Source: a virus (lineage: Duplodnaviria > Caudoviricetes). Taken from it: a DNA stretch of 64,000 nt. Positions 17,601 to 57,725 of the stretch are shown piece by piece. The translations under genes and the position numbers were made by a program. The notes beneath the pieces are model-generated. The model did not search any database, had not been told where the DNA came from, and saw only the letters and a program-made list of their open reading frames with translations. Position 1 is the stretch's first letter. The number at the start of each line of letters is the position of its first letter. The stretch is from positions 131,040 through 195,039 of IMG/VR virus record IMGVR_UViG_2510065010_000001. One strand, given 5' to 3'.

Positions 17601-20600
17601 TTAGCTCACGGATATAAAGAGACTTTCTTAAACGTTCTCAGCCCTGCTCTTGATCTTGCCACAGTTGGTGGAGGAGTCTTTAAGGCAGGACAACTTAATG
17701 CTTACAGCTCTCTTTCAGAAGTAGAAGAAGCTTACATCCAAGCAGGTGCAGGGCGTGGCAGTTTAGTAGGCTCTGTTTTTGGACTCTTTGCAATGGGTCC
17801 GTTAGGCGATGTGGCTGGGTCTTTGTTAGGACAGTTTATTGGGTCTGAGGCTGCTAAAGAACGTGCTCGACTTCGTTACGAAGCTAGAGATTACGGTATC
17901 GTCCCTATTCTGGAAGATTTCGTCGAACCTTTAACGAGAGATACCGTGCTGGCTGGATATGTAGGGAAACAAGTAGGTAAGATGGGCAGTGCTGCTGTGC
18001 AGTCTTACCTACAAAATTCCTTAGCAAAGATAGCCAGTGGAAAAGCTAATAAGCTCGATCGCATGGTTACAGCAGCGTCAGCTGCTTACCGACAAGGATT
18101 CCGCTCCCAAGTAGCACAAGCAACTGGTCGATTTAGTAGAGTGCTGGGTCATGCGCCAGGTGCAGCCTCTATTGGAAAACTAGTTGGTGGAACGTCTAAA
18201 GTTGTCACAAAAACTGCTGGAAAGATTCTTCAAATTCTCGGACCTGCAATAGACGTTACTCGGATAGGAGCTGGATATGTGCAATCTCAATCGGCACGAA
18301 CTGAGGCTGAGTACCAAGTTTCTGTTCGAAGAACATCTGGTGGATTAGGTTCTATCGCAGGAGGTTTAATAGGGGGTGCTTTAGGAGGACCGATCGGTGC
18401 AGTCGCAGGTAGTCTCTTAGGTGATTTCGTTCTTGATAAAGTTGGTGAGAATCTGGCACAAGAAGCATACATGCGTAATGTGAGCGCTGGAACAATCACT
18501 ACAGGGCAAATTGCAGGGGGTGTAATTGGTGCTGGAGTAGGGTTATTAGCTGGGGGGTTATTAGTCGGTGCTGGATTAGTGGCAGCAGTGGCGACAGCTC
18601 CTATTCTTTTAGCAGCAGCAGGTATTGGTCTTTTGGTAGGTGCTGTAGCAGGCGGATACGCTATGCTCACTGGTAAGAAAAAAGACGAATCAAAAACTCG
18701 CCTGGTTCAAGTAGCTCAACGTCGCCGCGCAAGATGGAATACACCTGATGCTCTAAATCAACCCATTAAAAAGCAAAGCATTATTAAACAAACTGATAAT
18801 GAAATACTCGATGTAACCAAACGTTCTAAAGAGCGCTTAGCAATTGCACAGTCTTATTTGAGTCCTACTCAGCAACCTGAGTCAGCTACTAACGTAATGA
18901 CTCAAGCTAAAACATCTAACCAGACACAGAGAGACCAGCAACGTCAATGGTGGTCTGGTGTTTATGAAGGAGTTGTTGCAGTCGGACGAAAAAGTATGGA
19001 GTTGGTTGAAGGAGTGCGATCGTACATCAAACGTACCTACTCTGATTTTCAAACGATTCTCTCTAAAGTGTCAGAGTTTAAGGCTTCACTGTTTAATAAA
19101 TCCCAAAAAACGTCTGCTAAAGAATCTTTACCAACTACACAAGTTGAAGTAAGCGACCCTACTGATACGTCTACGGTTACTGGTACACCAGTAACGGTTA
19201 AGGGAGGTGTGAAACTTAACGAGGCAGATGCTTACCGACTTGCAGCACTTGCAATCATGGAAGCTCCAACTCGGATGGGTCGTTTGGATGTTGCCCAAGC
19301 GGTTTTCAATAGAATAAACGCACCTAAAGTAGGAGCCGCTTCTTATGGTTCTAGTGTTACAGCAGTAGTGTTTGCGTCTGGACAGTTCGAACCGTATTTT
19401 GGTGTAAGTGCTTCTGAAATTAAGAATAGGTCTGATGCCGTCTCTATTCTTAAAAGAAAACGAGGGATGAGCAGTGCCCAAGCGAACCAGTTATTAAACC
19501 AGTTTTTTGCAGATGTGGCTGACCCCGCAAAGATGGCTCAAGCCAGAAAACATGTTGGAGGACGTACCGACTTTAAAGGTACAACCATGTATAGCAACAT
19601 GGTTAAAGGTGAGGACAAGCTACGAACTTATGGAGAGAATTTCTTCCACATTGGTTCGGGTCAAAGCTATAAACAGCTTGCAAAATTGGAACAGCTCGGA
19701 CCTTCTGTAATTGTTAAAGAAGGACAAGAGTTGCCTAAATCGGTTGCAGGTTCCTCTCCTCCACAAAATTTATCAGGAAGATTATCTGGCAAGGTAGTTC
19801 CGTTTAAGGGCATCATCGTTACTTCTGCAGTAGATGCTTCAGGTGAACCAGGTCTTGACTATGTTGTTGAGTCAGGTAAGCGTGGTGCTCAGTTTGGTTC
19901 CCTAACTTCTGGACAAGTTATTGAAGTAGTAGCTAATCAAAACTGGGAGTCACATTTAGAGCGAGGAGATACCCGTAGAGGTTATGGTAATCGGGTAATT
20001 GTTCGTAGTAAAGATTCAAAAACTGGAGAATTCGTAGACATCCTTTACGCCCACTTAGACCGTGTGAACGTGAAGAAAGGTCAGAGTGTTGTGGTAGGTA
20101 GCGTTCTAGGTACTCAAGGTAGAACTGGTTCGACAACAGGTGCTCACGTTTCAGTTGACTTTTATGCAAAAGATGCAAATCACGCTTCAAGAGCATCCAT
20201 AGCGATGCGCGACCGTTTAGCGCGTGAATTATCTAGAGGTGCCCCAAATCTTAATAAACAAGTGAAACAAACACAGCAAGCAGCCGCAACTCAGGCACCT
20301 GCTACTGTACCTACAACGGCTTCTACTATTTCTAAGTCTGCACCTACTGTTTCAACTGAACAAAATGGTCAAATTGTAACAACCTCAAAGCTGAATACTA
20401 CAAGACAATCAGCTACTACAAAGTCCGTTGATAAGATTGCATCTAGTACGCCAATTCGTATTCCCTCTGGTTTGAATGCTAGAGGAAAAAAAATGGCGCA
20501 ATACTTAGCAAATCCAAATGTTCGAGCGGTTTTAGACACGATCGCTTATGCAGAAGGGTTGTGGGGTAAACCCGGTGGTGGCTATGACTTAGGCTTTAAC

Positions 20601-25454: not shown

Positions 25455-25787
25455 CTTTACGAATTTTTGACCGCAGTATAACCCGATTAGCATAAAACAA
25501 CTTGCAATAAGTGCTTGAACCCAGTTCATGTTTTTGATAAGCAATACTATTGGGATTGAAAGCTTGTTTACATGAAAAACAGAGAAGACAAAAACTAAAA
25601 CAGCGATTAAAACGTGTTCTACTTTAGATCGTGTAGCTTTGTCCACTAAAGTATCTACAGTGAAGACAATGGCGGCTGCAGGTATAAAGGTTGCAATAAA
25701 GTAAGGGACAGTTAGCAGTAACAAGATGGGTAAACTCATGTTAGAAAGGGTGGGAAAACCCACCCCGGTATTATTTTCTCGACTCAC
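25437..25787 (-). CDS. small membrane protein
   Basis: Three to four hydrophobic segments. Confidence 0.5.
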   Translation of the reverse strand: MSRENNTGVGFPTLSNMSLPILLLLTVPYFIATFIPAAAIVFTVDTLVDKATRSKVEHVLIAVLVFVFSVFHVNKLSIPIVLLIKNMNWVQALIASCFMLIGLYCGQKFVKLVKGF

Positions 25788-28700
25788 AAATCAGTCCTTC
25801 ACAAGCACTATCCTGTGGTCCTGATTCAGTTTTGTTTTTTAAGTGTTTTGACAACAGCTTATTAAAGTCTGAAGACTTCCGCCGTTGACTAACGCCTTTC
25901 ATTAACTCGTTATACTTCTCTCTAGAAATAGCTTCATAGGGCAGTCTAGGAAAAGGAGCATCGAATTTAGCTAATAGAGCCATCCCGACATAACCTTCAT
26001 CATCCCGGATTGCTTCGTAAATGCGTTTTGCTAGCGGCTTAATCTCATCCTCTGATAATGAAATCGTAACACTACCTGTGTGTCCAATATAATTTTGCTG
26101 CACAACCATATAGAAATCAAAGTGCGCTAATGCGCTGAATTCTCGAAACTTGATATTTTCGAGTTCAGGGAAGGCATTCACAATTTGGTTTTTGACCGGA
26201 ACTTCAACTAACCACTCTGTGCATCTATCATCAAAGGGGTCATTTAACAGTTTTCCAGTCTCGTCTTTGTCTGACTGAGAGGGAACTACATTGTACCCGT
26301 AGTCAATTGCAGCAAGTGCGACCGGATCGTTTTTACCAAAAGTCATCCGGCGTATAAAGTAAGCAGCAAACGGTGGGTGTAACCCGTTACAGTCGGTGCC
26401 CGTCAGCATAGACATAGAACCAGACGGTTTTACGGTAGTGCAGCGATTGGGTCGGCGTAGCCCGTGACGATCGCAATACTCGTATACAGTACACTCCACA
26501 ACATCACGCCAGCGTTTGCAATACTCTGCCTCGATTCGTTTGTACAGTTTTCCAGCACAGTCATAGTCGAATCCGATTAGTTTACTGGCTCGAACAAGTA
26601 GGGAATCACCATCAGGAGATAAGTCATCCCAGTTAGGATTTCTTCCAGCCTCCCACCACCTTACATAATCAACACCAAACAGTTTGGTAAAGAACGTGAA
26701 AAACCCTGTAGCAGATACACCTACTATAGGGTCGATCGTTCTTGCATAGTTTATTCGAGGGTGTGCGAAGTCTCTTTGTAGTAGAGCACTTGCTTGCAGA
26801 GAGCTTGCTCTGAAAGCATCCTTCTGCTCCTGAAAGTTATACGGGTCTAATTGGTTTAAGTGAACTTCAGCTAAGTTGCACATGAAATCAGAGCCTATTA
26901 TTTCGTGGCAATTGTGCGCAATATACCCTTCTACAACTCCCCAGTTTGTTGCTGGTTCAGAGAAATCATAAACTTTTTCGAAACCAATACTTTTGACAGA
27001 TGTAATTCTCGGTGCCTGCCTAATTAGAAGACTTTGTAGTTTCTCTGTTTTATAACTCAGAGAGAAGTTAATTAAGTTGAAGAATAATAGACGTGATTCA
27101 TACTGCTGAATACATACGTCATATGATTCTCTACAGGTGTACTCCCCGTTTCTAAACTTGACTTTTTTAGGCTTATTTGTCGTGAAATAAGCGTTGATTC
27201 CAAATTCCCTTTTCAGTGAATTAATCACTTGAGTTACTAATTCTCTTGATGTTGTTTTGAGTGTCACCCTCCCTTCATTTTTCAAGACTGAACCGTTTGC
27301 TGTAAACAGCCCATTTAAAAACGCAGCTTTTTTATCTACGCTCCAATCTTTATAAGTTGTTGGTAAGCTTCTATCTGGGAGTGGTGCAGAAGAAAATCCG
27401 TCACTTATCAATTTGTCTTTTAAACCTTGAACGTAAACAGTAGACTGGCTGTTCCACTCATACATATATCCGCAGTCCTCTAAAAGACTAAGAAACTCTT
27501 GGTCTTTTGTGCCTATGTTTATTTCAACACCCAAATGGTTCGTTGATTTTAATCGACACAAATTTCCATCTCCTTGAACAAAACCATCGATTACATACTC
27601 TTGCTTGTGATTCGGTACATTTAAGTAAGGAAGCAAGCGCTTACCTTTCAAATGTTTAGCGTCACAGTCTCCTTCAGTTGTGTACCATACGTGGTCTGGT
27701 GTACACTTTAGAATTTTTTTACTAGATAGCCTTAACCGAACAACCTCTTTTTCTCCTGAGCACCAAACTTTAGAGTTGGATATGTTCCCATTCTTGTTTA
27801 TTATTTTTGGTTCGGTATTTTCCAACTCAGCAAAAGACTTATAACCAGTTACGGTTAACAGTTTCATGTCTCCGGTAAAACAAGGATTTGCTGAATACCT
27901 CCTAATCCTATTCTCAAGAACTTTTTCGTCTAAGTCAGACCCGTTACTCAGAGACTTTAAGTATGCTTTTGCTGCTTCAATGCTCTCCTGGTATAGAGAT
28001 AAAAATAAAGCTTTCTTTTCAGGTGAGTTTAATAAGTCGGCATTGGCACGGGCAACTGCTTCGCCGCTCCATTGAATTGCACCTTCACCAGAGTGATACT
28101 GTTTAGTAACAGCCTCAAGACATTCTTCGTAGGTTGGTTTTTTATGAAATGCACGAGTGTGGTTTGCACTCCTGAGCGCATCGCGTTTGTGATCGATCAC
28201 CCAGTTACCACTTTCATCTTGCTGCCACAGGTTGTCTTTAGACGTAGTAAAATCAGGATCGTCTGAAGACCCTACACGTAGACCTGCTGAGTTATGTGTT
28301 AAGTAACCGTTGCAATAGAAACAATTAACTTCTTCAACTTCTATGTCATAAGTTTCCATAGTCTCGAAAAACTCTACAGATTCAACCGTAACCGGAATAT
28401 CGATTTCTACGTCTGACTCCTGAGAATATTTCTCATAGTTTGAGTCATGCTGTCTGCTAGCGCTCAGTTTCATACCTCTCATTTGTGTGTAGGTATATTC
28501 TTCTCGCATTAAAGTCGCTGGTATTGTATACCCGTACATTTTGAGTCCTATTTTAATTGGACCCTTCAGAGAGTATGGAGCTATCAAGCTGTTATACAAA
28601 GGCTTTAATGCTGGAATGTTTACGCTATGTCTAATATTCCAGTTGGGATTGCTTGGTAGAGACATTGCATATCTGCCTGCAATTCCCAAACTAGATAGTA

Positions 28701-30342
28701 CAGATCCAACCTGATAAATGAATGTTTTACTAATGTTTGTCACTAAAACGGGAGGTCTGTTGTAAATAGCGCCGTCACTATCTACTAAACCAGCTAAGTA
28801 AGCTGATCTGATCGAGGCATCCCCTTTTAGAATGAAATCTGGAACTTCTAATGACCGTCCAGCCTGTTTAATAAACTTGTGAAAGTATTCAGCCAAACGA
28901 ATGGAACAGCAGTTAAACCTTATTGTGTTTTCACCTTTTATTGGAGTGACTTCTATATCTAGCCCAAATTCTGCAATCCCGTTTTTTATTTTTTCTTTTA
29001 ACCTTGTTAAAAACTCTTCAGAGTAAGTAGCATTTGTTGTCCAGTTTACATACCCGTATGGCTTTCCGTACTTGTTACGTCCTAACCCGACGTGACCGTT
29101 TCCGTGTGTAAATCCGATCAACCAAGCAATTAAAGGTGTCAGAGATGGAATAGTTAAGTTCTTAGCTGTTGTACTGTTTTTAGGTCGTAGCTGTGTAAAG
29201 TCAGGAGGGAGGTCTGTTTTTGTTCCAGGGAGCACATCCTTTGTATGTAAAAGACGATCACCTTCAATTAAGTCATTACAACTTACCCAACGAAAATCTC
29301 CTTTAGCTGAAGCTAACACAGCGTGTCTATGTGACAGAGTGGACCTAAAGGGCATTGAGTTTGTTCTAATCTCATAGACATCCTGCAATCCCTGATAGAA
29401 CTTGTTTGTTACTCTTTTGAAACCAGCAGGTGTTTGAACTAAGTCTCCCACGTTGACAGCTTTAATCGGTACTAAACCATTAGCAGTATGAACTAGAGCA
29501 TCTTCTGGCAAGCATCGACGCACATTTCCTGCTACTACTGCTGCAGCTGCTTCACCAATCAACAAACAAACTTCTAAACTATTAAGCTTACGTCCGACAG
29601 CTTGATTCAAAACATCAGCGCATTTTAAGAACATTCCAGGTAATGCAATAGGGTTAGCTATTCCGCCAAATCCTAACAACCGTTCTCCTGCTGGACGTAC
29701 ACCAGAAACATCAACAAATACTTTTAGTTCATCTTTATCAGATGCACTTAACTCTAAAAGCTTTTGATAAGCGTTTACCCAGCCCTGTCTGCTATCCCCG
29801 ACTAAAATCCAAGCAGATCCTTTTAGAAACCAAACTAAAGTTTCTTCGCTACGTTTATGAGCTTCTCGTTGACCGGGTTCACCAACTATCTTAACTTCGA
29901 GTTTAGTGTTAATAACAGGTAACTGCTCAATACAACGTAGCTCAACATTTGCACCAGTGCCACACCCTTGCATGGCTAAATCCATCATGATTCCGAAAGA
30001 ATCCCAATCGACAATCTCCCAAGCACTACAGTTAAACCCACCTGGATAGTTTTCAGGTTTTTCAACCCACTTACTACCCCCTACCCACAACCATCTTGCT
30101 GAACCAAATGCCTTTCGTTCGCGCATCATTTGGTCAACTAATCGAGTTTCCTCTTCTGTAAATTTTCCTAGAAACTTTAACCCAAGATGAGAGCTGTAAA
30201 GACAACGGTCTACAGTTTCATCCCAGGTTTCAAGTCGCTCTTCCCCCTCTACCCTTCGAGCGTAGGAGCGGGTGCGAATTAATTCAGACATAGGGGCAGG
30301 GTCATATTCTAGATTCTGTACTGGCTCAAAAATGTCTGTCAT
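25771..30342 (-). CDS. nrdJ: class II (adenosylcobalamin-dependent, monomeric RTPR-type) ribonucleotide reductase with two inteins
   Basis: RSYARR..ETWDETVDR, FNCS, AGNVRR|SA, NP|CHE active-site loop, TTVKPSG, and a C-terminal Cys pair (ACEGLIC). Confidence 0.92.
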   Translation of the reverse strand: MTDIFEPVQNLEYDPAPMSELIRTRSYARRVEGEERLETWDETVDRCLYSSHLGLKFLGKFTEEETRLVDQMMRERKAFGSARWLWVGGSKWVEKPENYPGGFNCSAWEIVDWDSFGIMMDLAMQGCGTGANVELRCIEQLPVINTKLEVKIVGEPGQREAHKRSEETLVWFLKGSAWILVGDSRQGWVNAYQKLLELSASDKDELKVFVDVSGVRPAGERLLGFGGIANPIALPGMFLKCADVLNQAVGRKLNSLEVCLLIGEAAAAVVAGNVRRCLPEDALVHTANGLVPIKAVNVGDLVQTPAGFKRVTNKFYQGLQDVYEIRTNSMPFRSTLSHRHAVLASAKGDFRWVSCNDLIEGDRLLHTKDVLPGTKTDLPPDFTQLRPKNSTTAKNLTIPSLTPLIAWLIGFTHGNGHVGLGRNKYGKPYGYVNWTTNATYSEEFLTRLKEKIKNGIAEFGLDIEVTPIKGENTIRFNCCSIRLAEYFHKFIKQAGRSLEVPDFILKGDASIRSAYLAGLVDSDGAIYNRPPVLVTNISKTFIYQVGSVLSSLGIAGRYAMSLPSNPNWNIRHSVNIPALKPLYNSLIAPYSLKGPIKIGLKMYGYTIPATLMREEYTYTQMRGMKLSASRQHDSNYEKYSQESDVEIDIPVTVESVEFFETMETYDIEVEEVNCFYCNGYLTHNSAGLRVGSSDDPDFTTSKDNLWQQDESGNWVIDHKRDALRSANHTRAFHKKPTYEECLEAVTKQYHSGEGAIQWSGEAVARANADLLNSPEKKALFLSLYQESIEAAKAYLKSLSNGSDLDEKVLENRIRRYSANPCFTGDMKLLTVTGYKSFAELENTEPKIINKNGNISNSKVWCSGEKEVVRLRLSSKKILKCTPDHVWYTTEGDCDAKHLKGKRLLPYLNVPNHKQEYVIDGFVQGDGNLCRLKSTNHLGVEINIGTKDQEFLSLLEDCGYMYEWNSQSTVYVQGLKDKLISDGFSSAPLPDRSLPTTYKDWSVDKKAAFLNGLFTANGSVLKNEGRVTLKTTSRELVTQVINSLKREFGINAYFTTNKPKKVKFRNGEYTCRESYDVCIQQYESRLLFFNLINFSLSYKTEKLQSLLIRQAPRITSVKSIGFEKVYDFSEPATNWGVVEGYIAHNCHEIIGSDFMCNLAEVHLNQLDPYNFQEQKDAFRASSLQASALLQRDFAHPRINYARTIDPIVGVSATGFFTFFTKLFGVDYVRWWEAGRNPNWDDLSPDGDSLLVRASKLIGFDYDCAGKLYKRIEAEYCKRWRDVVECTVYEYCDRHGLRRPNRCTTVKPSGSMSMLTGTDCNGLHPPFAAYFIRRMTFGKNDPVALAAIDYGYNVVPSQSDKDETGKLLNDPFDDRCTEWLVEVPVKNQIVNAFPELENIKFREFSALAHFDFYMVVQQNYIGHTGSVTISLSEDEIKPLAKRIYEAIRDDEGYVGMALLAKFDAPFPRLPYEAISREKYNELMKGVSQRRKSSDFNKLLSKHLKNKTESGPQDSACEGLICESRK
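26911..27882 (-). mobile_element. intein 2 in NrdJ (324 aa) with LAGLIDADG homing endonuclease
   Basis: Starts CFTGDMK after ANP; block B CTPDH; ends IAHN before the catalytic Cys; contains IDGFVQGDG and LNGLFTANG. Confidence 0.92.
28291..29514 (-). mobile_element. intein 1 in NrdJ (408 aa) with LAGLIDADG homing endonuclease
   Basis: Starts CLPEDALV after AGNVRR and ends LTHN before Ser; contains LIGFTHGNG and LAGLVDSDG. Confidence 0.92.
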
Positions 30343-40607: not shown

Positions 40608-41557
40608 TGGATGTTTTGTGAATAAAAGGAAAAAGAGTTAGAGCGTAATTGCTCCAACATTTCAAAAGCTTTATTTGACGGGGAGAAATTATAAAAGGTT
40701 TTACCTTTTGCAGCACGAACTACAAATCCTTTATGCTTACTTGTTTGTAAACAAGTGGTAGCTATGAACACCCAGCGTACAAATAATCTAACTGCATAAA
40801 CTGGGTCTAAAGGCATTTCTAAAAATAGACTTAGGTATACCCAAAGCTCAGGGCATAACCCCATTTTAGTACCACCTCCTGCAAGAATTTTATAAAATCC
40901 AACACCTTCTCCTTCTGCTGCGATCAATCTATACATGTCATAGGAGCTAAGCTCCCACAATTTAAGGGATAAGGGTGTGCCCAGACAATGCAGTAAGTCA
41001 TTGACTTGAACACCTGGTTCATCGGCTAGGTCATAGTCCAGTGGATTTGAAGACTTTGCAAGGCTTAAAAGGACATTAGGGGATTCAATATCCTTCAAAA
41101 GTTGGTTTTTAACCCTTGGGGATAAGTGTGCTAACGCTGATTGAACTAATTCGTTTTGTTTCCATTCGTATTTATTCAAATCAACTTGGATAAAACAACC
41201 TCCTGAAAGAGACTTAAAAACTTTTTCTGCTTCCTTAGATAAAGAGCCATCTACTTCTGAAAGCAGTAAGAAAATTCTTGTCTGTTCGTCTGGAACGGAT
41301 TTTAGTGCACTGAGCTGTTGTAGCTCTTTAATAGAGCTTGGAACAATAACAAAGTCAGCGGGTTCGAACCTCGATGAAACTATTGTTTCTACTAGTTCGT
41401 TCAAGCTTGCTTTGTACAAAAACTTGAAGGAGACTTCTCGCAGTAGAAACCAGAAAATATCCACCCTACCTTTAACTAAGTAAACGTTTCCCCTATCAAA
41501 TATTTCATGCATAAGTAGGTTGAGGGGTGGAGATTCGCTCATATCCAGATTGCTCAA
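40604..41557 (-). CDS. hypothetical protein, possible clamp-loader delta-like subunit
   Basis: Adjacent to the DnaX-like gene; size about 310 aa; N-terminal VYLVKG. Confidence 0.35.
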   Translation of the reverse strand: MSNLDMSESPPLNLLMHEIFDRGNVYLVKGRVDIFWFLLREVSFKFLYKASLNELVETIVSSRFEPADFVIVPSSIKELQQLSALKSVPDEQTRIFLLLSEVDGSLSKEAEKVFKSLSGGCFIQVDLNKYEWKQNELVQSALAHLSPRVKNQLLKDIESPNVLLSLAKSSNPLDYDLADEPGVQVNDLLHCLGTPLSLKLWELSSYDMYRLIAAEGEGVGFYKILAGGGTKMGLCPELWVYLSLFLEMPLDPVYAVRLFVRWVFIATTCLQTSKHKGFVVRAAKGKTFYNFSPSNKAFEMLEQLRSNSFSFYSQNIQ

Positions 41558-42623
41558 GTGGACTTCTAGTTAATAATGTTTCATCCGTTATAAGATCCAA
41601 GCCTATTAATAACTTAAGCGTATCTAACACACGGACTTTTCGAGAAGTACAGACGTGGTGATACAGCAGAGAATGAGCACGTAGTTGGTCAGCAGTTGGT
41701 CTTTTGACCATTGCGAGGTCAAGATCGCGCATCATTTGAATAACAAGTTTTTGCTCGTCGAAGTGGTAGATGTTTTGCTGCCAAAATGTATGAAGTCCTT
41801 TATAGTCATACTCCTGGATCATTTTCCAGATTCTTAGTCTGGTTGCAGCAGAAACATAATAAAGAGTCTCTGCCACATTTTCTACACTCAAATGACTGTC
41901 TACTTCTAAACAATCGTCTAGGGCGCTCAGGGCACCACGGATAGATCCATCTGCATAATGGGCGATGATTTCAAGACTTTCATCAGGTGCATAAGGCTCT
42001 TGTTTCTTCAAGTACTGAAAAATTTCAGTTTCGGATAACTTTCGAAAACGAAAGTATCGTGCACGGTCACGTAACGGCTTAAACACACCTTCTTTTATGT
42101 TTTCCTCTGCCATTGTCAGAAAAATAAAAATTACCCGGCTACGCTCTGTGATCGTTGGTACTTCAGGGTAAAACAATAAGTCTTGCAGCCGATCCTTCGG
42201 AATAGACTGGAGTTCGTCAAAAACGATTACCTTGTAGTGTCTATGGTCTTCATCCATCCCATATGGAGGTTGGTTTGCTTCTTGCAAAGCTTTCTTAAAC
42301 TGATTGGCTAAGGTTTCATCTTGCCCACGTTGAACCCAAGTCACATTATTAAGACTTGTCGATGTTCGAGGGTCAGACTTACAGGTGCGGCACTCACCAC
42401 AAGGTTGGGACTCTCCAGCCTTACGGTTTTCGCAGAACAGAGCTTTGATAAATAACCTAGCCGCTGTGGTTTTGCCAGTTCCAGTAAACCCGCTGAGGAC
42501 TATGGCATAGGGCATTTTATCTTTGTCGTTTTCTAAAAACCCTCGAAGACGTTTGACCTCTTTTTCGTGATACCAAAACTCATCCCAGTTTTGTGGGTCT
42601 TTCTCGATCGTTAACTGTTTCAT
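41505..42623 (-). CDS. dnaX: clamp loader ATPase, DNA Pol III gamma/tau (DnaX)-like
   Basis: P..WDE, SGFTGTGKTTAAR, PCGECRTC, YKVIVFDELQ, ADGSIRGALSALD. Confidence 0.85.
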   Translation of the reverse strand: MKQLTIEKDPQNWDEFWYHEKEVKRLRGFLENDKDKMPYAIVLSGFTGTGKTTAARLFIKALFCENRKAGESQPCGECRTCKSDPRTSTSLNNVTWVQRGQDETLANQFKKALQEANQPPYGMDEDHRHYKVIVFDELQSIPKDRLQDLLFYPEVPTITERSRVIFIFLTMAEENIKEGVFKPLRDRARYFRFRKLSETEIFQYLKKQEPYAPDESLEIIAHYADGSIRGALSALDDCLEVDSHLSVENVAETLYYVSAATRLRIWKMIQEYDYKGLHTFWQQNIYHFDEQKLVIQMMRDLDLAMVKRPTADQLRAHSLLYHHVCTSRKVRVLDTLKLLIGLDLITDETLLTRSPLEQSGYERISTPQPTYA

Positions 42624-49570: not shown

Positions 49571-50866
49571 CTATTCCGCCACATCAAGTTGGTCACTAAC
49601 TTTCTCAGCATGACGGACAACTACAAAGCTTTGTAATTGTAATGCGTCTGCTTCTTCAAAAGATTGCATAGCTAGTAACCAGCTCTTATTCCCTGAAGCA
49701 CGTTGCGTTGACTTTTGGGTTAGTACCAAAGCACTTGACGCAAGGTTTGTAAATTTGAAATAACTTTGAAAACTGCGGAGGATGGAAACAAATGCCTGAG
49801 CATTGATTAAAACAGGTGCCCATTCTTCGCTAATAACGGATGGGTCTATGTGAACGAAAGCTCGTTCTTTACCTTTCACGTCTGAAGCTTGGAGAATTAC
49901 CAAGTGTGGTTTTTGCTCAACAAGTACAAGTTCCTGTTGTAGCTCCGTTTCATCTGGCAACTGCAAAGTGACAGACGTTAATAAGTCTTGCAGGGCAACC
50001 AGCCTATTACTTTCTTCTTTTACTCTGGGGTCGTTACCAAACAGTGCATAATTCATGAGTGTCCTATCTTCTGGGTCAACACACTTAAGGGACACTCTCC
50101 CACGATCGCCTTGAAAAGTTACCCAGTCTTCACCGTCTATTTGGTCTAAGTAAATCTCAACTGGAGCTTCCAAACTAAGCTTGATTAAACGCTTCATGTG
50201 CCGTCCTTCAACAGCAAACTTGTTTTCTACAAGCTCACTACCAGGGATAGTCACACCCAAATAACACATATAGGATGCTTTATGGTTAGCTACTCCTAAA
50301 ATCTTATCCGGTTGGATGTCTAGAAAGACTGTGCGACCTACAATATCACTGCCGGGTTTTTCATTAAAGTCTGCGAACTTTTGGAGTAAACTTACCCAAT
50401 TAGAAAAATCTTTTGCTAAAACTTTTCCTATTAAATTCGAAGCTTCGAAGACTTCTCCAAAGTCAGAAAGGGTTCCGCCATATTGACGAACAGCTAACCT
50501 CCCCCTTTCTTTCTCTCCAGTTTGTGTAACAGCATAGTCTACTAAAAGGTTTAAAGTTCCTCTATTAACTCTTAGCGTAAGACTACCAACTCCAGCCTTG
50601 TGTAACTTACCAAGTTTAGACTTTAACTCTGTTTGGTCAATTAAATAAACAATTCCAGGCTCTCCCCCAGCATCACTATCTTGGTGTACATGATACCGCT
50701 GGACGATCGCTTTATTTGGTTCTTTAGTCGTAGCAACAGTTAAGTTGTGCTCTACCTGTTCGAGTAGAACACAACTGTGTGCAGACAAAGCTTCGGTTGT
50801 AGCAGCGCAGTAAACTTGCTCAAACAATAGCTTGAGCATAGTAGCTTTTTCAAAGCGTATAGTCAT
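49571..50866 (-). CDS. divergent sliding clamp (DnaN/beta-like) candidate
   Basis: N-terminus MTIRFEKATMLKLL..V......L....VLLEQVEHNLTVATT parallels the DnaN N-terminus; alternating alpha/beta pattern; V.INAQ.F..IL near the C-terminus. Confidence 0.55.
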   Translation of the reverse strand: MTIRFEKATMLKLLFEQVYCAATTEALSAHSCVLLEQVEHNLTVATTKEPNKAIVQRYHVHQDSDAGGEPGIVYLIDQTELKSKLGKLHKAGVGSLTLRVNRGTLNLLVDYAVTQTGEKERGRLAVRQYGGTLSDFGEVFEASNLIGKVLAKDFSNWVSLLQKFADFNEKPGSDIVGRTVFLDIQPDKILGVANHKASYMCYLGVTIPGSELVENKFAVEGRHMKRLIKLSLEAPVEIYLDQIDGEDWVTFQGDRGRVSLKCVDPEDRTLMNYALFGNDPRVKEESNRLVALQDLLTSVTLQLPDETELQQELVLVEQKPHLVILQASDVKGKERAFVHIDPSVISEEWAPVLINAQAFVSILRSFQSYFKFTNLASSALVLTQKSTQRASGNKSWLLAMQSFEEADALQLQSFVVVRHAEKVSDQLDVAE

Positions 50867-52289: not shown

Positions 52290-52850
52290 CTATTTAGACC
52301 ACATTTTAGAAATAGCAGCTTCAGCCCGTCCACTCCATTCGTTGTTAAAAGTTTCTGCTTGGGCTTTTTCCATTAGACTCTTACAAATATTTCCCCAATG
52401 CTTTGCCTCTTCATTAGGTTCATAATACGGTTTGAAAATACCGTTTTTAATAATGCATTTATCTTCAACAAGAACTACATCACCGGGAACACAGCAAACT
52501 AGTTCGTCATGGACCAGCATACAAATTTTTGCGTCTGTCCCTAAGAACTCATCATATACGTAATCCATTGAGAGCTTAATTTGTGTAGAACCATATCCTT
52601 GAATTTGAAAGTTGACTCCAGACCTAGCAGGGCTGGCACCCGCTTGTTTGCTGTTATCTTCTGCCACCCATCTCAACCTTCCGTCACGATTTCTACTCCA
52701 TCCACGAACGGTGCAAAGATGTCCAATTTCCTTCGCCCACTTGTGAAATCCTGGATACGTTTGCTCGTGACGTTTGATCCAATCAGCGCAAAGTTCTTCT
52801 TTGACGTGGTAAAGGTCGGACATTGCCTTTGATGTCTGACCGTATATGAT
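52290..52850 (-). CDS. polA: family A DNA polymerase, C-terminal subunit, exon 2 (end of motif B, motif C)
   Basis: IIYG..., GRLRW, NFQIQG, LVHDELV. Confidence 0.9.
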   Translation of the reverse strand: MIYGQTSKAMSDLYHVKEELCADWIKRHEQTYPGFHKWAKEIGHLCTVRGWSRNRDGRLRWVAEDNSKQAGASPARSGVNFQIQGYGSTQIKLSMDYVYDEFLGTDAKICMLVHDELVCCVPGDVVLVEDKCIIKNGIFKPYYEPNEEAKHWGNICKSLMEKAQAETFNNEWSGRAEAAISKMWSK

Positions 52851-53092
52851 CACTTAGCCCCTAATTACTTAGGGAGTAGACTATACCTTAGTTGTTGTTT
52901 TGTGAAAAACAGAACAACAACTCCTGCCGTATTACCCATTTTTGAGTCTCAGAGTCACCTTATCCACTGGACTTAGGCTATCTTCAGTCGTTACACCATT
53001 CGATCATATTTCTAAGATCCCTGGCTCGGTATTGCCGCTCGTATGAGTACGGTTTCACCGAATTGAGCAGGTTTTACTTCGGCTATCACTTA
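52851..53092 (-). ncRNA. group I self-splicing intron (242 nt, no ORF)
   Basis: 5' exon ends in U (TTCGGT) and pairs with IGS GCCGAA via a U.G wobble. P AATTCGGTGAAAC, Q AATACCGAGC, R GTAACGACT, S AAGGTATAGTCT. P9 has a GTAA tetraloop and the intron ends in G. Splicing restores KRVNFG|IIYG. Confidence 0.92.
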
Positions 53093-53509
53093 ACCGAAAT
53101 TTACTCGCTTTGCATAGTCGCGAGGTTTTCCCTTCTGAGTAATTAAACTCTCATTCTTAGCAATATCTACCCACTCGTGCCGTTGCTTTCCTACAAATAA
53201 ATGTGGAAAGCAACAACCCATGCAAGTTAGAGTATGCAAGTCTGCGTCCGGGTTTGGATAAAATACTTGCTTGCCGTCTTTGACTACCTGTTTTCCATCC
53301 AGGTCTAACAAAGGTAAGGTTTCTTCTGACAAAAACGCTTTCAGCATTGTCTGGTCCTGAGAAAGGACGGCAGCAATATACAGTTCTTGTGAACTGAAGT
53401 CCACTGAAAGTAGAACGTATCCAGGTGGAGCGACAAACCCTCCTCTTGCTGTTAGTGAAAGCCTGACAGTTGTACCACCTGCTTTTATTGCTTCTGTGGT
53501 TTGATTCAA
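53093..53509 (-). CDS. polA: family A DNA polymerase, C-terminal subunit, exon 1 (motif A, start of motif B)
   Basis: RGGFVAPPGYVLLSVDFSSQEL, DLH, RDYAKRVNFG; GGAGG 5 nt before the TTG start. Confidence 0.9.
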
Positions 53510-53524
53510 TGCATCCTCCAGTGA

Positions 53525-53737
53525 TTAACGTTGTGTTAACGCACGACCAAGCCTGGTTAATCGATAAGGCTTCTCAGTTATTAAACGTTTTGAAATTAAC
53601 AACTTCAATAACTGATGAATCTGCTTACGATTAAACCTGGTTTCTAATGCCTTATAAGGCAAAACTAGCTTGTTGTCGGTACCAAATGCACGAAGAACAA
53701 CTAGCTCTTCTTCACTCACTGGTGTAAACCCTAGCAT
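53525..53737 (-). CDS. small winged-helix-like protein between the polA halves
   Basis: EEELVVLRAF...IHQLLKLLISKRLI....YRLTRLGR. Confidence 0.55.
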   Translation of the reverse strand: MLGFTPVSEEELVVLRAFGTDNKLVLPYKALETRFNRKQIHQLLKLLISKRLITEKPYRLTRLGRALTQR

Positions 53738-53867
53738 TTTCTTTTTCCTTTATTCGAAGGTCTACCTTATCGATAGTCGCTAGTAGCGCAGCTTTAACTG
53801 CGTACCATTGTTCTAAGGTCAAGTCACCAAGCTCATCTAAGTTAATAAAAGTCTCTACGCTTTGCAT
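53712..53867 (-). CDS. 51-aa ORF between the polA halves (MQSVETFINLDELGDLTLEQWYAVKAALLATIDKVDLRIKEKENARVYTSE)
   Basis: Translated by hand; overlaps both neighbours in operon fashion. Confidence 0.5.
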   Translation of the reverse strand: MQSVETFINLDELGDLTLEQWYAVKAALLATIDKVDLRIKEKENARVYTSE

Positions 53868-55270
53868 GGCGGCACCCAATCAGGAATAAGAGATTCGTAG
53901 TTTGCGGAGCTAGGGAAAAGTTTTTCCCGCTCTCGTTCAATCTCGACATACGTTCTAGCAGATACGTTCTGCAGATTGGGTCCACTAGACGAACTACGTC
54001 CAGTGGCAGCACCGAGAACGTCTAATCGGGAGTGGATACATCCAGTGAGAGGATTGATGTGACTTCTCAAATCCATCGAGTAAAGCTTGCGTAACTGCTT
54101 ATACTCAATGACCAACTTCGCAAGTTCAGAAGCTTGTACTGCCTCGCATTCGGAATAATCAAGGATTTGTCGGTACAATTCCTCTTCATCCTGGTCAACA
54201 AACTCGGTTGCTCCCTCTTTTGCTATCTCTTCTGTTAAGTCAATAAATCTCTCTAAGACTTGCGTTTGAGAGTTATCTAGCTCTAAGCCCACTTGTTTAT
54301 TAATTAACTCTTTTAGAATTTGAGGGTTGTTAAGAGCTTTGTACGATCGCTGAGTAGGTAACTTCGTGTCTCCCCAAAAAGAAGGCTCAGTATCTAACCC
54401 AAACTTTACGCACAACTTACTAGCAACTGTAGTTAAAGCTCCTTCTCCGGTGCTTGGGTCCTGGATAGATTTTTGAATTTGGTCAAAGATTTCACGCGAA
54501 GCTGGCAACCCGTTGTATTCCATCTCAGCAGCTACTACTGCCATCTTCATTTCTAATGGCAAGATAGCACTCATGCCTAATCCATGTGAACCTTCAACCC
54601 CATCAGCAAGAATTGGACTGTAAGGTAACGGGTCACAGATGACCTTCAAAAACAAGTCATGTAAATCAAACAGATACTTAACGTCGTTAGCTGCGTACTT
54701 CAACTTATCAAAAACCCAGTATTTATAACCCTCTGACTCTCGATTAGTAAAATCTGGACGTGCATACCAGTCTGTCGTCTGTTCTGCACCTTTTCCTACC
54801 AGGTTAATACCTAAGTAATCTCGGCATAGGTCTGCTAACGTATGCCCACACAATTTACCGTATTTACTACCTGTGGCATTTGTTATTAACTTCGCCATCA
54901 GTCTAGTACACCAGAGGTTTGAAGGTACTATGCCGTAGTGTCGCTTAAGGAACTTTCCGTCGAACTGAGCGTTATGAAAGATCAGTTTTTTACGGGACAC
55001 GAGTAAATCATGCATTAGCTGCGGATTATACCCGTTACGTTCTAGAAGAAGAATGTCAAACACGATAGGCACATCGTCTCTGCCCTGTAAAGTTAGCACA
55101 CTTATCCTTCCTGTATGAGGGTCTAATGCACTCGCTCCTTTTAGGTGACGATATTGAGGTAAAGTATACGTCTCTGAATCCCCTGCTAATTCCTCAAAGG
55201 ATTCTAGATGGTCAACGAAAAGACAGTACTCATCACGTTCTGTAACATAAACGAACTCATCTTTACTCAT
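53855..55270 (-). CDS. polA: family A DNA polymerase, N-terminal subunit (3'-5' exonuclease, thumb, start of palm)
   Basis: ExoI DSET, ExoII HNAQFD, ExoIII YAAND, EYNG, GCIH...ATGRSSSSGPNLQN. Confidence 0.9.
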   Translation of the reverse strand: MSKDEFVYVTERDEYCLFVDHLESFEELAGDSETYTLPQYRHLKGASALDPHTGRISVLTLQGRDDVPIVFDILLLERNGYNPQLMHDLLVSRKKLIFHNAQFDGKFLKRHYGIVPSNLWCTRLMAKLITNATGSKYGKLCGHTLADLCRDYLGINLVGKGAEQTTDWYARPDFTNRESEGYKYWVFDKLKYAANDVKYLFDLHDLFLKVICDPLPYSPILADGVEGSHGLGMSAILPLEMKMAVVAAEMEYNGLPASREIFDQIQKSIQDPSTGEGALTTVASKLCVKFGLDTEPSFWGDTKLPTQRSYKALNNPQILKELINKQVGLELDNSQTQVLERFIDLTEEIAKEGATEFVDQDEEELYRQILDYSECEAVQASELAKLVIEYKQLRKLYSMDLRSHINPLTGCIHSRLDVLGAATGRSSSSGPNLQNVSARTYVEIEREREKLFPSSANYESLIPDWVPPCKA

Positions 55271-55598: not shown

Positions 55599-55626
55599 GC
55601 CTCGATTAGAAAATTCTAATCGAGGC
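55599..55626 (-). terminator. hairpin downstream of recA
   Basis: GCCTCGATTAGAA/TTCTAATCGAGGC inverted repeat. Confidence 0.6.
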
Positions 55627-55652: not shown

Positions 55653-57725
55653 CTATATAGGAAGCGTGATTAGGTGGTCGTATAATTTGTTGAAAATCTC
55701 TGGGTTGGCTTTTAGGAAAGCAGTAACGCTATCGATGCCTTGTCCAATTTTGGACTCTACTCCATATTGAGTTGCAACTTCGTCGCTGAATTTATACCAG
55801 GACCCAGATCTGTTGACCAGTCCGGCATAGACTAGTTCTCCAGCTAACACGTCTTCAGGAACAATGCCATCTGCTTTATAGATGTTTACGTCAACACTTT
55901 CCCGTACAGAACCATTGGTGTGATTTTTTTGGATTTTTACTTGAGTAATTTGACCTTTAATAAATCCATCTTTAGTTTTGATAGCTTCCTTCTTCATAAG
56001 TTGAAGCCGCAAAGATGGCATGTGCCTTGCTCCATGCCCACCTGGAGTTCCAGTGGAATTGTGCACATTGATTCCGTACAAGTTGCCAGCAAAATAATTG
56101 TGAGTATCCGCCACTTCCAGATCGTACATTGTTTGCTCACCAATATTGGCTTTTGAAACCCCTGTAATAGTCAGGTGGCGAGGTACAACTTGTTGGTCTA
56201 TCAACCAAGTTTTAGGAGTGTTTAAGCGCTCAACTTCTAAATGCAAAGCATCCTGAGCAAACGTTGGTACCCAATCCTTAATAAGTTCTGATAACTTCTT
56301 AAAGGCATTTTGAGTGAGAAGAATCCCTTCTTGGCTAGACACGATGAGAATTTCAGATGCCTCGCACTCTATGAAATCTACCCACATTTTGTGGGCACGT
56401 TCTGTATCTGCCTTAGCTCGATACTGCTTAAATAGATGGTCGAGCCTGATGAAAAAGGTATTTTGGTCTGTCGATAGTTTTGGCTTTACTACGTTTGCTA
56501 CAAACCAGGCAGTTGCCATCTGTGGGGTTAAACCCAACTGTCGAGGTATAGTTCTAACTAGTTTATGAGATGGATCAGCAATGTAATATTGCTTTTTGAA
56601 TATTGCCATCTCCTCGTCTTGCCGAGAACGTCGCATAACTCGGTTGTTATGCTCATTTGTTCTCAGCTCTAGTAGTTCTTCTAGAAGTGAATTAATCCAC
56701 TCATTAAACCTTGGGTCAAGATTACTTGCGGTGTAGCAAAGTCTTGCTGTGCCAAGTTTAGTTTGTTCCAAATAGAACAAGCCTGAGAGCAATAAACCGT
56801 GTAACAATCCATACCCATCTGGGCTTGCAGTAATAGAAGTATACGCAGATGTGACAACATCATCCGGTTTTAACTGAGCAGATGGTAGATCACCCCGATT
56901 AATGGTAGGGACTATATGATCGTGCGTAGTTACTAAACGTCCAGGCATTTCTAAAAACTGAACAGCAATCCAATCTTTAGACTTACCGTTGATAAACCAG
57001 TTGGTGACTGGTTTTGAAACAATTTTACCCGTATCTATGTCTTTAGACAGTACATTTACTGAAAGTTTTTCTCTAACTACGGTTTCTATCGATTTTCGGG
57101 TTCCATCACTTAACGAGATTTTCATACTTGCTGGAAGACATCCACCCCCTGGACCACCAATACTAGACCGGATTTGGTTTGTAAAAACTAGAATACCCTG
57201 GTTGTCGTCTACTACTGGCACGAGCAAACTTTTAGCGTGGTTAATAAATCGGGAGAGGTAAGCAACACCTCTGGACTCGTCAATGCTTTTAGCCAAAATG
57301 TCAGATGGAACTAATGCTTCTATTGAGTCTAGAAAAGCAATTCTATGCTCACCTGATTTGAAAAATTCGATTAGAATTTCTATCGCTTCTTCGGCTGTAG
57401 GTGGCTTAGCATAGAAAAAATCGGATAGTTGAAATCTTTCCCTAGTGTTATTTGAGAAAGCTTTCCTCTCCATATCTAAGTACATTCCGATCCAACCTTG
57501 CTTTTGGGCGGCACTTAGAATTGCAAAACAAGTACTGCTTTTGCCTGCGTCAGGTCCACCATAAATCTCTGTGATTCTACCGATAGGTAACCCACCACCC
57601 AATGTTCTATCCAGTGAAATAATATTTGTACGTAAAAATTTGAGTTTAGGGTAGTCTCCAAACTTTACGTAACTCTGTTTAGCAAATAAATTTTGAACTG
57701 TACTAATTTCAGATAGCTCTACCAT
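55653..57725 (-). CDS. recA: RecA-family recombinase with intein
   Basis: SLD..LGGGLP.GRITEIYG..AGKS, LDSIEAL, FTNQIR, TPGG. Confidence 0.92.
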   Translation of the reverse strand: MVELSEISTVQNLFAKQSYVKFGDYPKLKFLRTNIISLDRTLGGGLPIGRITEIYGGPDAGKSSTCFAILSAAQKQGWIGMYLDMERKAFSNNTRERFQLSDFFYAKPPTAEEAIEILIEFFKSGEHRIAFLDSIEALVPSDILAKSIDESRGVAYLSRFINHAKSLLVPVVDDNQGILVFTNQIRSSIGGPGGGCLPASMKISLSDGTRKSIETVVREKLSVNVLSKDIDTGKIVSKPVTNWFINGKSKDWIAVQFLEMPGRLVTTHDHIVPTINRGDLPSAQLKPDDVVTSAYTSITASPDGYGLLHGLLLSGLFYLEQTKLGTARLCYTASNLDPRFNEWINSLLEELLELRTNEHNNRVMRRSRQDEEMAIFKKQYYIADPSHKLVRTIPRQLGLTPQMATAWFVANVVKPKLSTDQNTFFIRLDHLFKQYRAKADTERAHKMWVDFIECEASEILIVSSQEGILLTQNAFKKLSELIKDWVPTFAQDALHLEVERLNTPKTWLIDQQVVPRHLTITGVSKANIGEQTMYDLEVADTHNYFAGNLYGINVHNSTGTPGGHGARHMPSLRLQLMKKEAIKTKDGFIKGQITQVKIQKNHTNGSVRESVDVNIYKADGIVPEDVLAGELVYAGLVNRSGSWYKFSDEVATQYGVESKIGQGIDSVTAFLKANPEIFNKLYDHLITLPI
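56058..57140 (-). mobile_element. intein in RecA loop L2 (361 aa), endonuclease apparently degenerate
   Basis: Starts CLPASMK; block B TTHDH; ends MYDLEV..THNYFA...VHN before Ser. Confidence 0.9.

Follow-up and report, generated by a model that had tools for sequence, protein, structure and literature searches.

A family A DNA polymerase gene cut inside the catalytic palm in a cyanophage-type element, with a small winged-helix gene at the cut

The family A polymerase is the textbook example of a polymerase made as one chain. In the window analysed here, a 64,000-nt stretch of DNA from a large cyanophage-type element in a bacterial chromosome, the gene of such an enzyme (PolA) lies in two halves with small ORFs between them. 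Is this a working polymerase made as two chains, or a broken gene, and what do the small ORFs contribute? We conclude that the locus quite probably encodes a genuine, anciently split family A polymerase. The layout is common to a group of cyanophage-like viruses, including cultured Microcystis phages, in which the chain is cut inside the catalytic palm; the motif A aspartate and the primer-binding PNLQN..R motif therefore lie on different polypeptides. Such loci offer a natural system for asking how an active site is rebuilt from two pieces, what role a small winged-helix protein has at such a cut, and how selfish elements, three kinds of which crowd this gene family, reshape an essential enzyme. 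They also matter for annotation, in which '3'-5' exonuclease' and 'DNA polymerase', or else 'hypothetical', are the usual labels of the two genes.

Layout of the locus and position of the cut

All parts of the locus are where an earlier sequence-only reading had placed them, on the minus strand (Table 1). An alternative N-half start, a TTG at 55300, would give 481 aa; the database copy of the N-half (P0005) has 471. The 51-aa ORF, which could also start at a TTG at 53879 to give 55 aa, runs over the stop of the N-half at one end and, by 26 nt, into the 70-aa ORF at the other. As the same reading had noted, the C-half has a GGAGG and a TTG of its own; they stand 5 nt apart, the TTG is at 53509, and the protein begins MNQTTEAIKAGGTTVRLSLTARGGFVAPPGYVLLSVDFSSQEL. 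The N-half, the 51-aa ORF, the winged-helix ORF and the C-half follow one another closely, overlapping or set 15 nt apart, no terminator-like site was found in the gap between the halves, and promoter-like sites occur at chance level (8 seen, 6.9 expected). In the window these genes would be co-transcribed and translationally coupled.

Table 1. Features of the split polymerase locus (window coordinates)
Feature	Coordinates	Strand	Description
PolA N-half gene	55270-53855	minus	471 aa from ATG 55270 (ORF list)
51-aa ORF	53867-53712	minus	ATG 53867 (ORF list)
70-aa winged-helix ORF	53737-53525	minus	Family alignments, AF2 fold
PolA C-half exon 1	53509-53093	minus	139 codons, TTG start
Group I intron	53092-52851	minus	242 nt, RF00028 match, without ORF
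PolA C-half exon 2	52850-52290	minus	186 codons and stop

The N-half contains a 3'-5' exonuclease domain (PF01612, E 2.9e-18), the thumb and the palm up to PNLQNVSAR, followed by a 32-aa tail (TYVEIEREREKLFPSSANYESLIPDWVPPCKA) that ends ...GPNLQNVSARTYVEIEREREKLFPSSANYESLIPDWVPPCKA at the stop. The Exo I-III motifs read as intact (DSE, NAQFD and YAAND), and across 36 relatives D41 and E43 never vary and D114 hardly does. In the C-half, exon 1 opens with a 20-aa head and goes on through the R..F strand and motif A (DFSSQEL) into motif B as far as NFG; exon 2 takes motif B up again at IIYG and adds motif C (VHDE) and the C-terminal end. All three polymerase motifs read as intact, motif B as RDYAKRVNFG/IIYG across the intron (slash). 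By these motifs the predicted product is a family A DNA polymerase with a proofreading exonuclease. PolA sequences in the PDB match down to E 9e-33, PHROG matches were obtained to 31382 (E 1.7e-23) and 35406 (E 1.6e-6 and 3.1e-9), and the AF2 model of the N-half (pLDDT 84.5) retrieves the Klenow, Aquifex and apicoplast PolAs in Foldseek. Both halves appear to be under purifying selection, with dN/dS values in the L007/L008 pair of relatives of 0.065 for the N-half and 0.17 for the C-half at a dS near saturation.

Matches to PF00476 fall on the N-half (positions 67-149), the 139-aa piece encoded by exon 1 (140-184) and the last piece (217-344), and the cut is therefore inside the polymerase domain. 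The 139-aa piece is matched at 34.1 bits, slightly below the cut-off of 34.3, and exon 2 with an E of 1.1e-15; exon 1 also aligns to the uninterrupted C-halves of relatives. The cut lies in a short loop of the palm, with the PNLQN..R motif before it and the R..F strand, which precedes motif A, after it, as first read from the sequence. It corresponds to the TPLGQ loop of Taq polymerase (chain 2ktq_A), on which the end of the N-half profile and the start of the C-half profile are only a few residues apart.

The sequence-only reading had further claimed that the catalytic subunit needs RNA splicing, and a match to RF00028 together with the reading of the ligated exons supports this. The match, at 53102-52858, spans the full model length (1-253) with 48.1 bits and an E of 4.1e-10, where the Rfam gathering score is 50. 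The predicted intron interrupts motif B between NFG and IIYG. In its P1, UUCGGU would pair with GCCGAA, placing U53093.G53083 at the 5' splice site; in P10, AUCAU (52850-52846) pairs with GUGAU (53089-53085), and the terminal G is 52851. Exon ligation would be in frame and yield NFG/IIYG, identical to the sequence of the intron-free relatives L006 and L008. On this reading the C-half mRNA must first lose its 242-nt group I intron. Group I introns occur in relatives as well, at the same NFG site in L007 and in motif A in L010 and L011. HTH and LAGLIDADG ORFs of L010 and L011 were considered as occupants of the gap between the halves and rejected, since they sit within the group I intron that interrupts C-half motif A.

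The same cut in relatives and in known phages

We counted 91 relatives of the N-half at E<=8e-50. In 82 an xNxQ[NQ] motif stands near the end and the stop follows 12-58 residues later (median 25), five have a variant motif with the stop likewise shortly after, and four are fragments ending at or before the motif. The sequence-only reading had proposed checking whether relatives conserve the split, and none of the 91 strong N-half relatives is a fused N+C polymerase. No N-half relative at E<=1e-10 reaches 843 aa, and a search for longer proteins with the 139-aa piece returned only two matches, both C-halves. A cis intein (PF14890) is present in at least 28 of the 91, close upstream at a different site, GR(S)/C, and these proteins still end at the cut. 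The cut is not due to chance, because it recurs in about 90 relatives, and these comparisons indicate that it is ancient. The N-half tail is conserved at the protein level, with a positionally conserved ...[D/N]-L-[F/Y/W] at the C-terminus that many relatives overrun by 1-5 residues. A scan of genome contigs with the N-half gave 54 pattern matches and no true relatives; among metagenome contigs, two of the 80 loci kept (L016 and L017) are true relatives and the others are generic exonuclease-domain matches.

The gap between the halves ranges among relatives from 250 nt to 46 kb and is varied in content. Two opposite-strand genes separate the halves in L012, and in the contig of L013 they are ~46 kb apart. 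Since the halves are unlinked in these relatives, their products must meet as separate proteins. Conservation throughout a deep clade and the unlinking of the halves in some of its members uphold the earlier claim that the split is genuine and not a product of decay or assembly.

The closest known counterpart is found in cultured phages. Microcystis phage Ma-LMM01 has gp180, annotated '3'-5' exonuclease', and gp178, annotated 'DNA polymerase', with gp179 between them. In Ma-LMM01 and the MaMV phages (Fukuivirus) the chain is cut at the same place as here. A P/N-x-Q-Q motif and a short strand closing with ..LF stand before the cut, and the R..F strand lies beyond it; in Ma-LMM01, gp180 ends ...ISNVELMVDIEEDRLFEDN at its stop and gp178 begins MTKIKMNSRFALQAPPGY. 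By its cut site, the polymerase of the window can be classed as a Ma-LMM01-type split PolA (PHROG 31382 and 35406). Both systems have a small ORF at the cut, a gene for a beta-clamp homologue a few genes downstream, and a clamp-loader gene in the genome. However, the N-halves are only about 24-26% identical, gp179 falls outside the winged-helix family described below (no HMM match at E<=1, on which ground we rejected it as a winged helix), and the C-half of Ma-LMM01 is uninterrupted in its annotation, whereas that of the window has a group I intron. We also rejected a reading of gp179 and gp178 as one frameshifted gene; gp178 aligns from its own start. The cut layout has thus stood in the Ma-LMM01 annotation for years, and its novelty is lower than the sequence-only reading had assumed. 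Our literature search, which did not extend to the Ma-LMM01 genome paper itself, found no paper discussing the split in this phage.

Split PolAs as such have been published, but the search found no account of the present cut within a domain or of the winged-helix gene. In T7-like cyanophages (S-SBP1-like, 'clade B') PolA is encoded by two genes whose products are presumed to reassemble (Czernecki et al. 2023, PMC10201439; PMC12695635), which makes these, like the present case, cyanophage-type family A polymerases in two genes. Their cut separates the exonuclease domain from the polymerase domain, and the ends it creates are exposed to solvent (PMC10201439; PMC12695635), whereas here it is inside the polymerase domain, with PF00476 on both sides; the accessible parts of these reports describe no conserved small gene at the cut. 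The 2023 reclassification of family A calls the exo/pol split the first seen in PolAs (PMC10201439). A further published phage lineage is reported to have two polymerase genes separated by an uncharacterised small ORF, a layout like the present one; its authors considered an intron but could not show it.

The proposed heterodimer and the winged-helix gene

We propose that the two polypeptides would be made separately and would reassemble non-covalently into one enzyme. Two alternating-hydrophobic strands, TYVEIE in the N-half tail and TVRLSL in the C-half head, would replace the ancestral loop and add to the interface; the sequence-only reading had suggested that they may pair. In the monomer model the tail past TYVEIE folds back onto the N-half with high confidence (pLDDT 87-91 for residues 451-480), and it is therefore more than a loose linker.

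The suggestion in the sequence-only reading that the small ORFs may be accessory factors gains support for the 70-aa ORF, which is conserved in the closer clade, and loses it for the 51-aa ORF, for which no relative was found and which may be no gene at all. The latter has no tblastn match in related loci and no Pfam or PHROG family, and an ORF at the same place in L006 was rejected as its counterpart after BLASTP of the 51/55-aa ORF gave no match. It is probably lineage-specific or spurious. The 70-aa product is basic (net charge about +8) and is modelled by AF2 as a winged-helix fold with a pLDDT of 89 (helices 9-16, 27-31 and 37-49; strand 58-60). The best Foldseek matches are winged helix-turn-helix (wHTH) domains of MarR type (TM 0.76, E 0.02), and a PDB profile search matches the eS19 winged helix (E 1.9e-5). 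As modelled, the protein is a stand-alone winged helix, a three-helix bundle with a beta-hairpin wing. It has no curated family: the best Pfam match, PF24409, scores 17.6 bits against a cut-off of 27, and no PHROG was matched.

By HMM search, the winged-helix gene is at the cut in all 11 informative loci of the closer clade, overlapping or abutting the C-half start in eight and the N-half end in eight. Its dN/dS in the L007/L008 pair is about 0.09, which points to purifying selection. However, the gene is missing from Ma-LMM01-type relatives and from G008 (0 of 2 loci), which are cut at the same place. Reassembly as such can therefore do without the protein. Our best guess, a tentative one, is that it serves the split polymerase as an accessory factor that binds nucleic acid.

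It is also quite possible that the winged helix stands outside the enzyme and that the polymerase is a plain heterodimer. The protein would then regulate the polymerase operon, at the level of transcription or translation, or be a domesticated DNA-binding remnant of whatever mobile element first split the gene. MarR-like winged helices are typically transcription factors, and the nearest folds to the 70-aa model are of this type, but as a single 70-aa domain it does not have the MarR dimerisation helices. A remnant would suit a polymerase gene that is a hot spot for selfish elements, with inteins in N-halves and group I introns bearing LAGLIDADG or HTH ORFs in C-halves, and would suit the varied cargo of the gap in relatives, but a pure remnant would be expected to decay. 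The loci that are cut yet have no winged-helix gene favour a place outside the enzyme, as does the finding that none of the 107 representatives of the winged-helix family (E<=1e-3) is fused to a polymerase piece; long proteins matched by the family profile are multi-wHTH proteins, not polymerases. Against this, the gene is constant in the closer clade, stays with the C-half where the halves are 46 kb apart, and is under selection as strong as that on the polymerase.

A more elaborate version of the accessory-factor reading seems unlikely to us. It holds that the cut is adaptive and that the holoenzyme has three parts, a clamp-binding N-half tail and the winged helix as a DNA-binding third subunit among them. 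Other replicative polymerases carry clamp-binding C-terminal tails; here the palm-loop split would make a new N-half C-terminus that works as such a tail, its target being the element's own beta-clamp homologue (49571-50866), and the cut would be the docking site of the basic winged-helix protein. This homologue, a 431-aa ORF, is putative: an Atlas structure search points to it, and the ORF has no BLASTP match to Ma-LMM01 gp176 and no PDB sequence match. In a variant, the winged helix would once have been a domain inserted in the palm loop. The N-half, the 70-aa ORF and the C-half share one reading frame here, and only a single TAA and five codons separate the 70-aa ORF from the C-half start.

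Unlikely alternatives, rejoined halves or a dead gene, and selfish elements

That shared frame, in a locus rich in introns and inteins, could instead mean that the halves end up in a single polypeptide, whether through trans-splicing, an intron that escaped detection, ribosomal bypass or a cryptic split intein. We consider this very improbable. The sequence-only reading saw neither intein nor intron in the gap, and Pfam and Rfam agree: there is no Rfam match on its coding strand at E<=1 and no Pfam intein domain on the N-half, its tail included, or on the 139-aa piece with the C-half head. The residues of a split intein (Cys/Ser for an N-intein; HN and Cys/Ser/Thr for a C-intein) are also absent from tail and head. 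Reading frames differ among relatives, the gaps can be long or hold opposite-strand genes, the tail is conserved and confidently modelled as protein, and the C-half has its own ribosome-binding sequence and start codon, all of which argue against joining.

That the gene is decaying in a dead prophage, or that the assembly is at fault, is hardly credible. The element's location within a bacterial chromosome and the scarcity of relatives in the same order (one among 89 other genomes) might point that way. Against it stand the recurrence of the cut in cultured lytic phages as well as in about 90 independent assemblies, intact catalytic motifs with no frameshift or lost catalytic residue seen in this copy, purifying selection, and a genome that is a single 5.53-Mb contig.

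Selfish elements have divided other phage enzymes. In Aeromonas phage Aeh1 a free-standing homing endonuclease, mobE, reportedly made a gene in pieces, nrdA-a and nrdA-b, and gp43 of T4-like phages is also split. As in these cases, an essential phage enzyme is encoded here by two genes with foreign DNA at the cut, from which the enzyme would reassemble. Unlike the nrdA/mobE locus, the gap has no nuclease domain, with no HNH, GIY-YIG or LAGLIDADG family found on the 55-aa or 70-aa ORF in Pfam or PHROG, and the LAGLIDADG ORFs of relatives sit in C-half introns instead of the gap. The element lies in a prophage-like region of the bacterial chromosome and could be a silent prophage; the window's copy shows that such an element can reside in a complete bacterial chromosome.

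Layout of the split polymerase and its intron

The minus strand from 55300 to 52290 holds five elements (see table), among them the N-half and C-half of a family A DNA polymerase (PolA) cut inside its polymerase domain. Pfam places PF01612 and positions 67–149 of PF00476 on the N-half, positions 140–184 of PF00476 on the second piece and 217–344 on the third. Every exonuclease motif is intact, as are motifs A, B and C of the polymerase. The layout, the Pfam pieces and the intact motifs bear out the arrangement proposed in the sequence-only reading, a polymerase divided between two genes with two small ORFs between them, and establish that the enzyme is encoded in two, here three, coding pieces. 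The gap had been said to show neither intein residues nor an intron core, and we found no Rfam family on its coding strand at E ≤ 1 and no intein domain on the N-half tail or the C-half head. Nor was a terminator-like site found between the polymerase genes of the window. The two polymerase halves and the 70-aa ORF between them share one reading frame (53510–53857, minus strand), with seven in-frame stops between the N-half and the 70-aa ORF, and one TAA plus five codons between the 70-aa ORF and the C-half start. The shared frame may be due to chance (about 1 in 9); the frames differ in relatives.

The catalytic half had also been thought to require RNA splicing. The Rfam group I model matches 53102–52858 over its full length with 48.1 bits (E 4e-10), narrowly missing the 50-bit cut-off. 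In our reading of the sequence, P1 is formed by exon bases UUCGGU (53098–53093) and GCCGAA (53083–53078), with the canonical U.G pair falling at the splice site that follows the Gly codon GGU, and P10 by the first exon-2 bases AUCAU (52850–52846) and GUGAU (53089–53085); the terminal G of the intron is G52851. The ligated product, ...NFG/IIYG..., is identical to the coding of the intron-free related loci L006 and L008. Because these pairings and the terminal G form a consistent splice solution and ligation restores NFG/IIYG, we place the intron limits at 53092–52851; splicing itself is a prediction. A group I intron occupies the same NFG site in the related locus L007, and others lie in motif A, between DY(A/S)G and QEL, in L010 (81.8 bits) and L011. 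Some of these C-half introns contain HTH(-repeat) or LAGLIDADG ORFs, and the L010 C-half ORF (614 aa) may also carry an intein.

Features of the window, and intron regions in related loci
Feature	Position	Strand	Remarks
Class II ribonucleotide reductase, 1523-aa ORF	25771-30342	-	B12-dependent RNR insertion domain; intein with LAGLIDADG homing endonuclease
Clamp-loader-like protein	41505-42623	-	PF13177
Beta-clamp-like protein, 431-aa ORF	49571-50866	-	Atlas structure search
C-half, last segment	down to 52290	-	reads IIYGQTS...VHDE...
ORF-free stretch, 242 nt	between 139-codon ORF and last C-half segment	-	
C-half, first piece	TTG 53509	-	139-codon ORF ending ...RVNFG-TAA; 15-nt spacer with GGAGG before TTG
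70-aa ORF (winged helix)	53737-53525	-	26-nt overlap with 51-aa ORF
51-aa ORF	ATG 53867, within last N-half codons	-	55 aa if start is TTG 53879
PolA N-half	55270-53855	-	471 aa from ATG, the length of database copy P0005; TTG at 55300
Terminator-like hairpin, strong, 12 pairs	55599-55626	-	between RecA gene and 104-aa coiled-coil-like ORF
RecA-like recombinase	55653-57725	-	PF00154, PF21096; close upstream of polymerase operon
Intron regions of relatives	L010 9023-9260, 11031-11319; L011 8028-8261, 9148-9346; L007 7919-8669		C-half motif A or B (after NFG)

Conservation of the cut and separation of the halves

A protein search with the N-half returned 259 matches at E ≤ 0.001, of which the best 91 (E ≤ 8e-50) make up a clade, the next match lying at 4e-11. 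The motif xNxQ[NQ] stands near the end of 82 of the 91, with a stop 12–58 residues (median 25) later; five have a variant motif, likewise with a stop soon after, and four are fragments ending at or before the motif. None of the 91 continues into motif A, and at E ≤ 1e-10 the search for relatives of at least 843 aa was negative. A cis intein (PF14890) sits just upstream of the cut, between GR(S) and C, in at least 28 of the 91, and these too end at the cut. Many N-half relatives, P0017, P0018, P0028, P0057 and P0074 among them, have an intein at this site, ∼10 residues ahead of PNLQN, some with an HNH or LAGLIDADG-type insert and some lacking one. Inteins, introns and a gene split have all invaded this polymerase family within about 150 codons. 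Aligned to Taq polymerase, the two half-profiles join to within a few residues, and the cut corresponds to the loop TPLGQ between NLQNIPVR and RIRRAF. The position of the stops shows that the split is conserved in relatives, real and old.

In nine IMG/VR loci and one metagenome locus, ∼250 nt to ∼2 kb separate the N-half from the C-half downstream of it. The cargo of the gap varies: L006 has DUF3850 and a Dam methylase, L017 an HTH protein and L012 two opposite-strand genes. In record G090 (L013; L097–L099) the halves are unlinked, with the N-half at ∼90.4–88.7 kb and the C-half, on the same strand ∼46 kb away, at 43.1–40.2 kb; the C-half consists of three pieces, a 283-aa ORF lying between the first two. 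This distance and the opposite-strand genes in L012 rule out cis joining as a general mechanism.

Only 12 records of the phage collection match the N-half, and the host is a cyanobacterium wherever one is stated. In Microcystis phage Ma-LMM01 the match corresponds to gp180 (annotated '3'-5' exonuclease'), with gp179 (51 aa) and gp178 ('DNA polymerase') next in order; gp180 ends ...ISNVELMVDIEEDRLFEDN and gp178 starts MTKIKMNSRFALQAPPGY, so that the cut site is the same as in the window. In Pseudanabaena phage PA-SR01, in contrast, the gene is fused in the ordinary way, and a short loop, ADGSELN, stands here. The split PolA at G008:C209 (locus L096; 6000–8900, minus strand) is likewise of the Ma-LMM01 type and lacks the winged-helix gene; it lies in the only other genome of the order with a relative (1/89), and its C-half matches are spread over different frames, suggesting frameshifts or introns. 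The split is real and conserved, and split phage polymerases as a kind are already in print. The exo/pol split PolA of T7-like cyanophages is described as the first in the PolA family in a passage of PMC10201439 and appears also in one of PMC12695635, and a passage of PMC7824862 describes a split Pol III alpha in jumbo phages. Full-text searches of literature outside subscription journals turned up no description of the intra-domain cut in the Ma-LMM01-type PolA, and none of the winged-helix gene.

The N-half tail and reassembly

The tail of the N-half is conserved as protein in nearer relatives (..RP..[D/N]LFPSSANY..L.PDW.P). An AlphaFold2 model of the N-half alone has a mean pLDDT of 84.5 and a pTM of 0.80. 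Residues 431–447, including GRSSSSGPNLQNV, fall below a pLDDT of 50, as would be expected if this stretch requires the other half or DNA, and tail residues 451–480 reach 87–91. These values and the conservation indicate that the tail is a folded part of the N-half and not junk behind a broken frame; together with the intact motifs and the conserved cut, they uphold the earlier argument against decay.

Conservation further suggests that the halves reassemble non-covalently. Hydrophobic residues alternate across relatives in a strand of the N-tail (T-Y-V-E-I-E) and one of the C-head (T-V-R-L-S-L), and these probably form a two-stranded ribbon replacing the ancestral loop. The mechanistic core of the split PolA lies in this proposed interface and in the putative role of the winged-helix protein.

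A [D/N]-L-[F/Y/W] peptide is positionally conserved at or near the new C-terminus; the loose pattern occurs in 66 of 82 tails, against 40–45% expected by chance on our own rough estimate. More speculatively, given the clamp-motif consensus and the parallel of T4-type C-terminal tails, this end of the N-half might bind the beta-clamp homologue that the element itself encodes. A clamp loader is also present in the window. That homologue, the 431-aa ORF, resembles the DNA polymerase III beta sliding clamp in the Atlas search (TM 0.73 on the query and 0.83–0.85 on the target, over 361–368 residues); it had no match in Pfam, PHROG or PDB sequence searches, nor by BLASTP to Ma-LMM01 gp176. A passage of Kazlauskas and Venclovas (PMC3201878) proposes that in Ma-LMM01 the PolA works with the phage's beta-clamp homologue. 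A free peptide is made somewhat less likely by the high pLDDT that the tail reaches when the N-half is modelled alone.

The winged-helix gene and its genomic setting

Homologues of the 70-aa ORF lie at the cut in L006–L012, L014 and L017, and in G090 (L013) a homologue (E 1e-26) directly precedes the distant C-half and overlaps its start. All 11 informative loci in the closer clade have the gene (L016, which ends at a contig edge, was left out); it overlaps or abuts the C-half start in 8/11 and the N-half end in 8/11, and nothing else occupies the gap consistently. It is missing from L001 and L096, the two loci of the distant Ma-LMM01-type branch, as well as from PA-SR01 with its fused polymerase gene. 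That the Ma-LMM01 branch lacks it shows that the protein is not needed for reassembly itself.

A profile search of 1.84 billion representatives gave 107 members at E ≤ 1e-3, 28 of them at E ≤ 1e-10. Almost all stand alone, with lengths of 62–129 aa; the long matches are multi-wHTH proteins, and none of the 107 is fused to a polymerase. For the L007/L008 pair, whose dS is close to saturation, dN/dS is ∼0.09 for the winged helix and, for comparison, 0.065 and 0.17 for the two halves of the polymerase. The 70-aa ORF is a real gene family. Its AlphaFold2 model (pLDDT 89) is a minimal winged helix, closest in fold to MarR-type domains (TM 0.76, Foldseek E 0.02); the best PDB sequence match is the eS19 winged helix (E 1.9e-5), no Pfam cut-off was reached and no PHROG matched. 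The protein has 14 Lys/Arg versus 6 Asp/Glu. We tentatively favor a nucleic-acid-binding accessory at the polymerase; a regulator or a domesticated mobile-element remnant is only slightly less likely. The suggestion that the small ORFs may be accessory factors survives in part: the 70-aa ORF is conserved at the cut, but the 51/55-aa ORF has no match in the related loci, Pfam or PHROGs, and may be lineage-specific or not a gene.

The window spans bases 749843–813842 of a single-contig genome of 5.53 Mb. It looks phage-like throughout by gene content, with a primase, helicases, UDG, PhoH and a tail-collar protein, and the setting of the split polymerase is chromosomal and prophage-like. The 104-aa coiled-coil-like ORF precedes the N-half, and the RecA-like gene contains an intein of ∼355 aa (GGC/LPAS...VHN/S), to which the PF14890 match is weak. 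A single ORF of 5284 aa occupies 5622–21476 on the plus strand.
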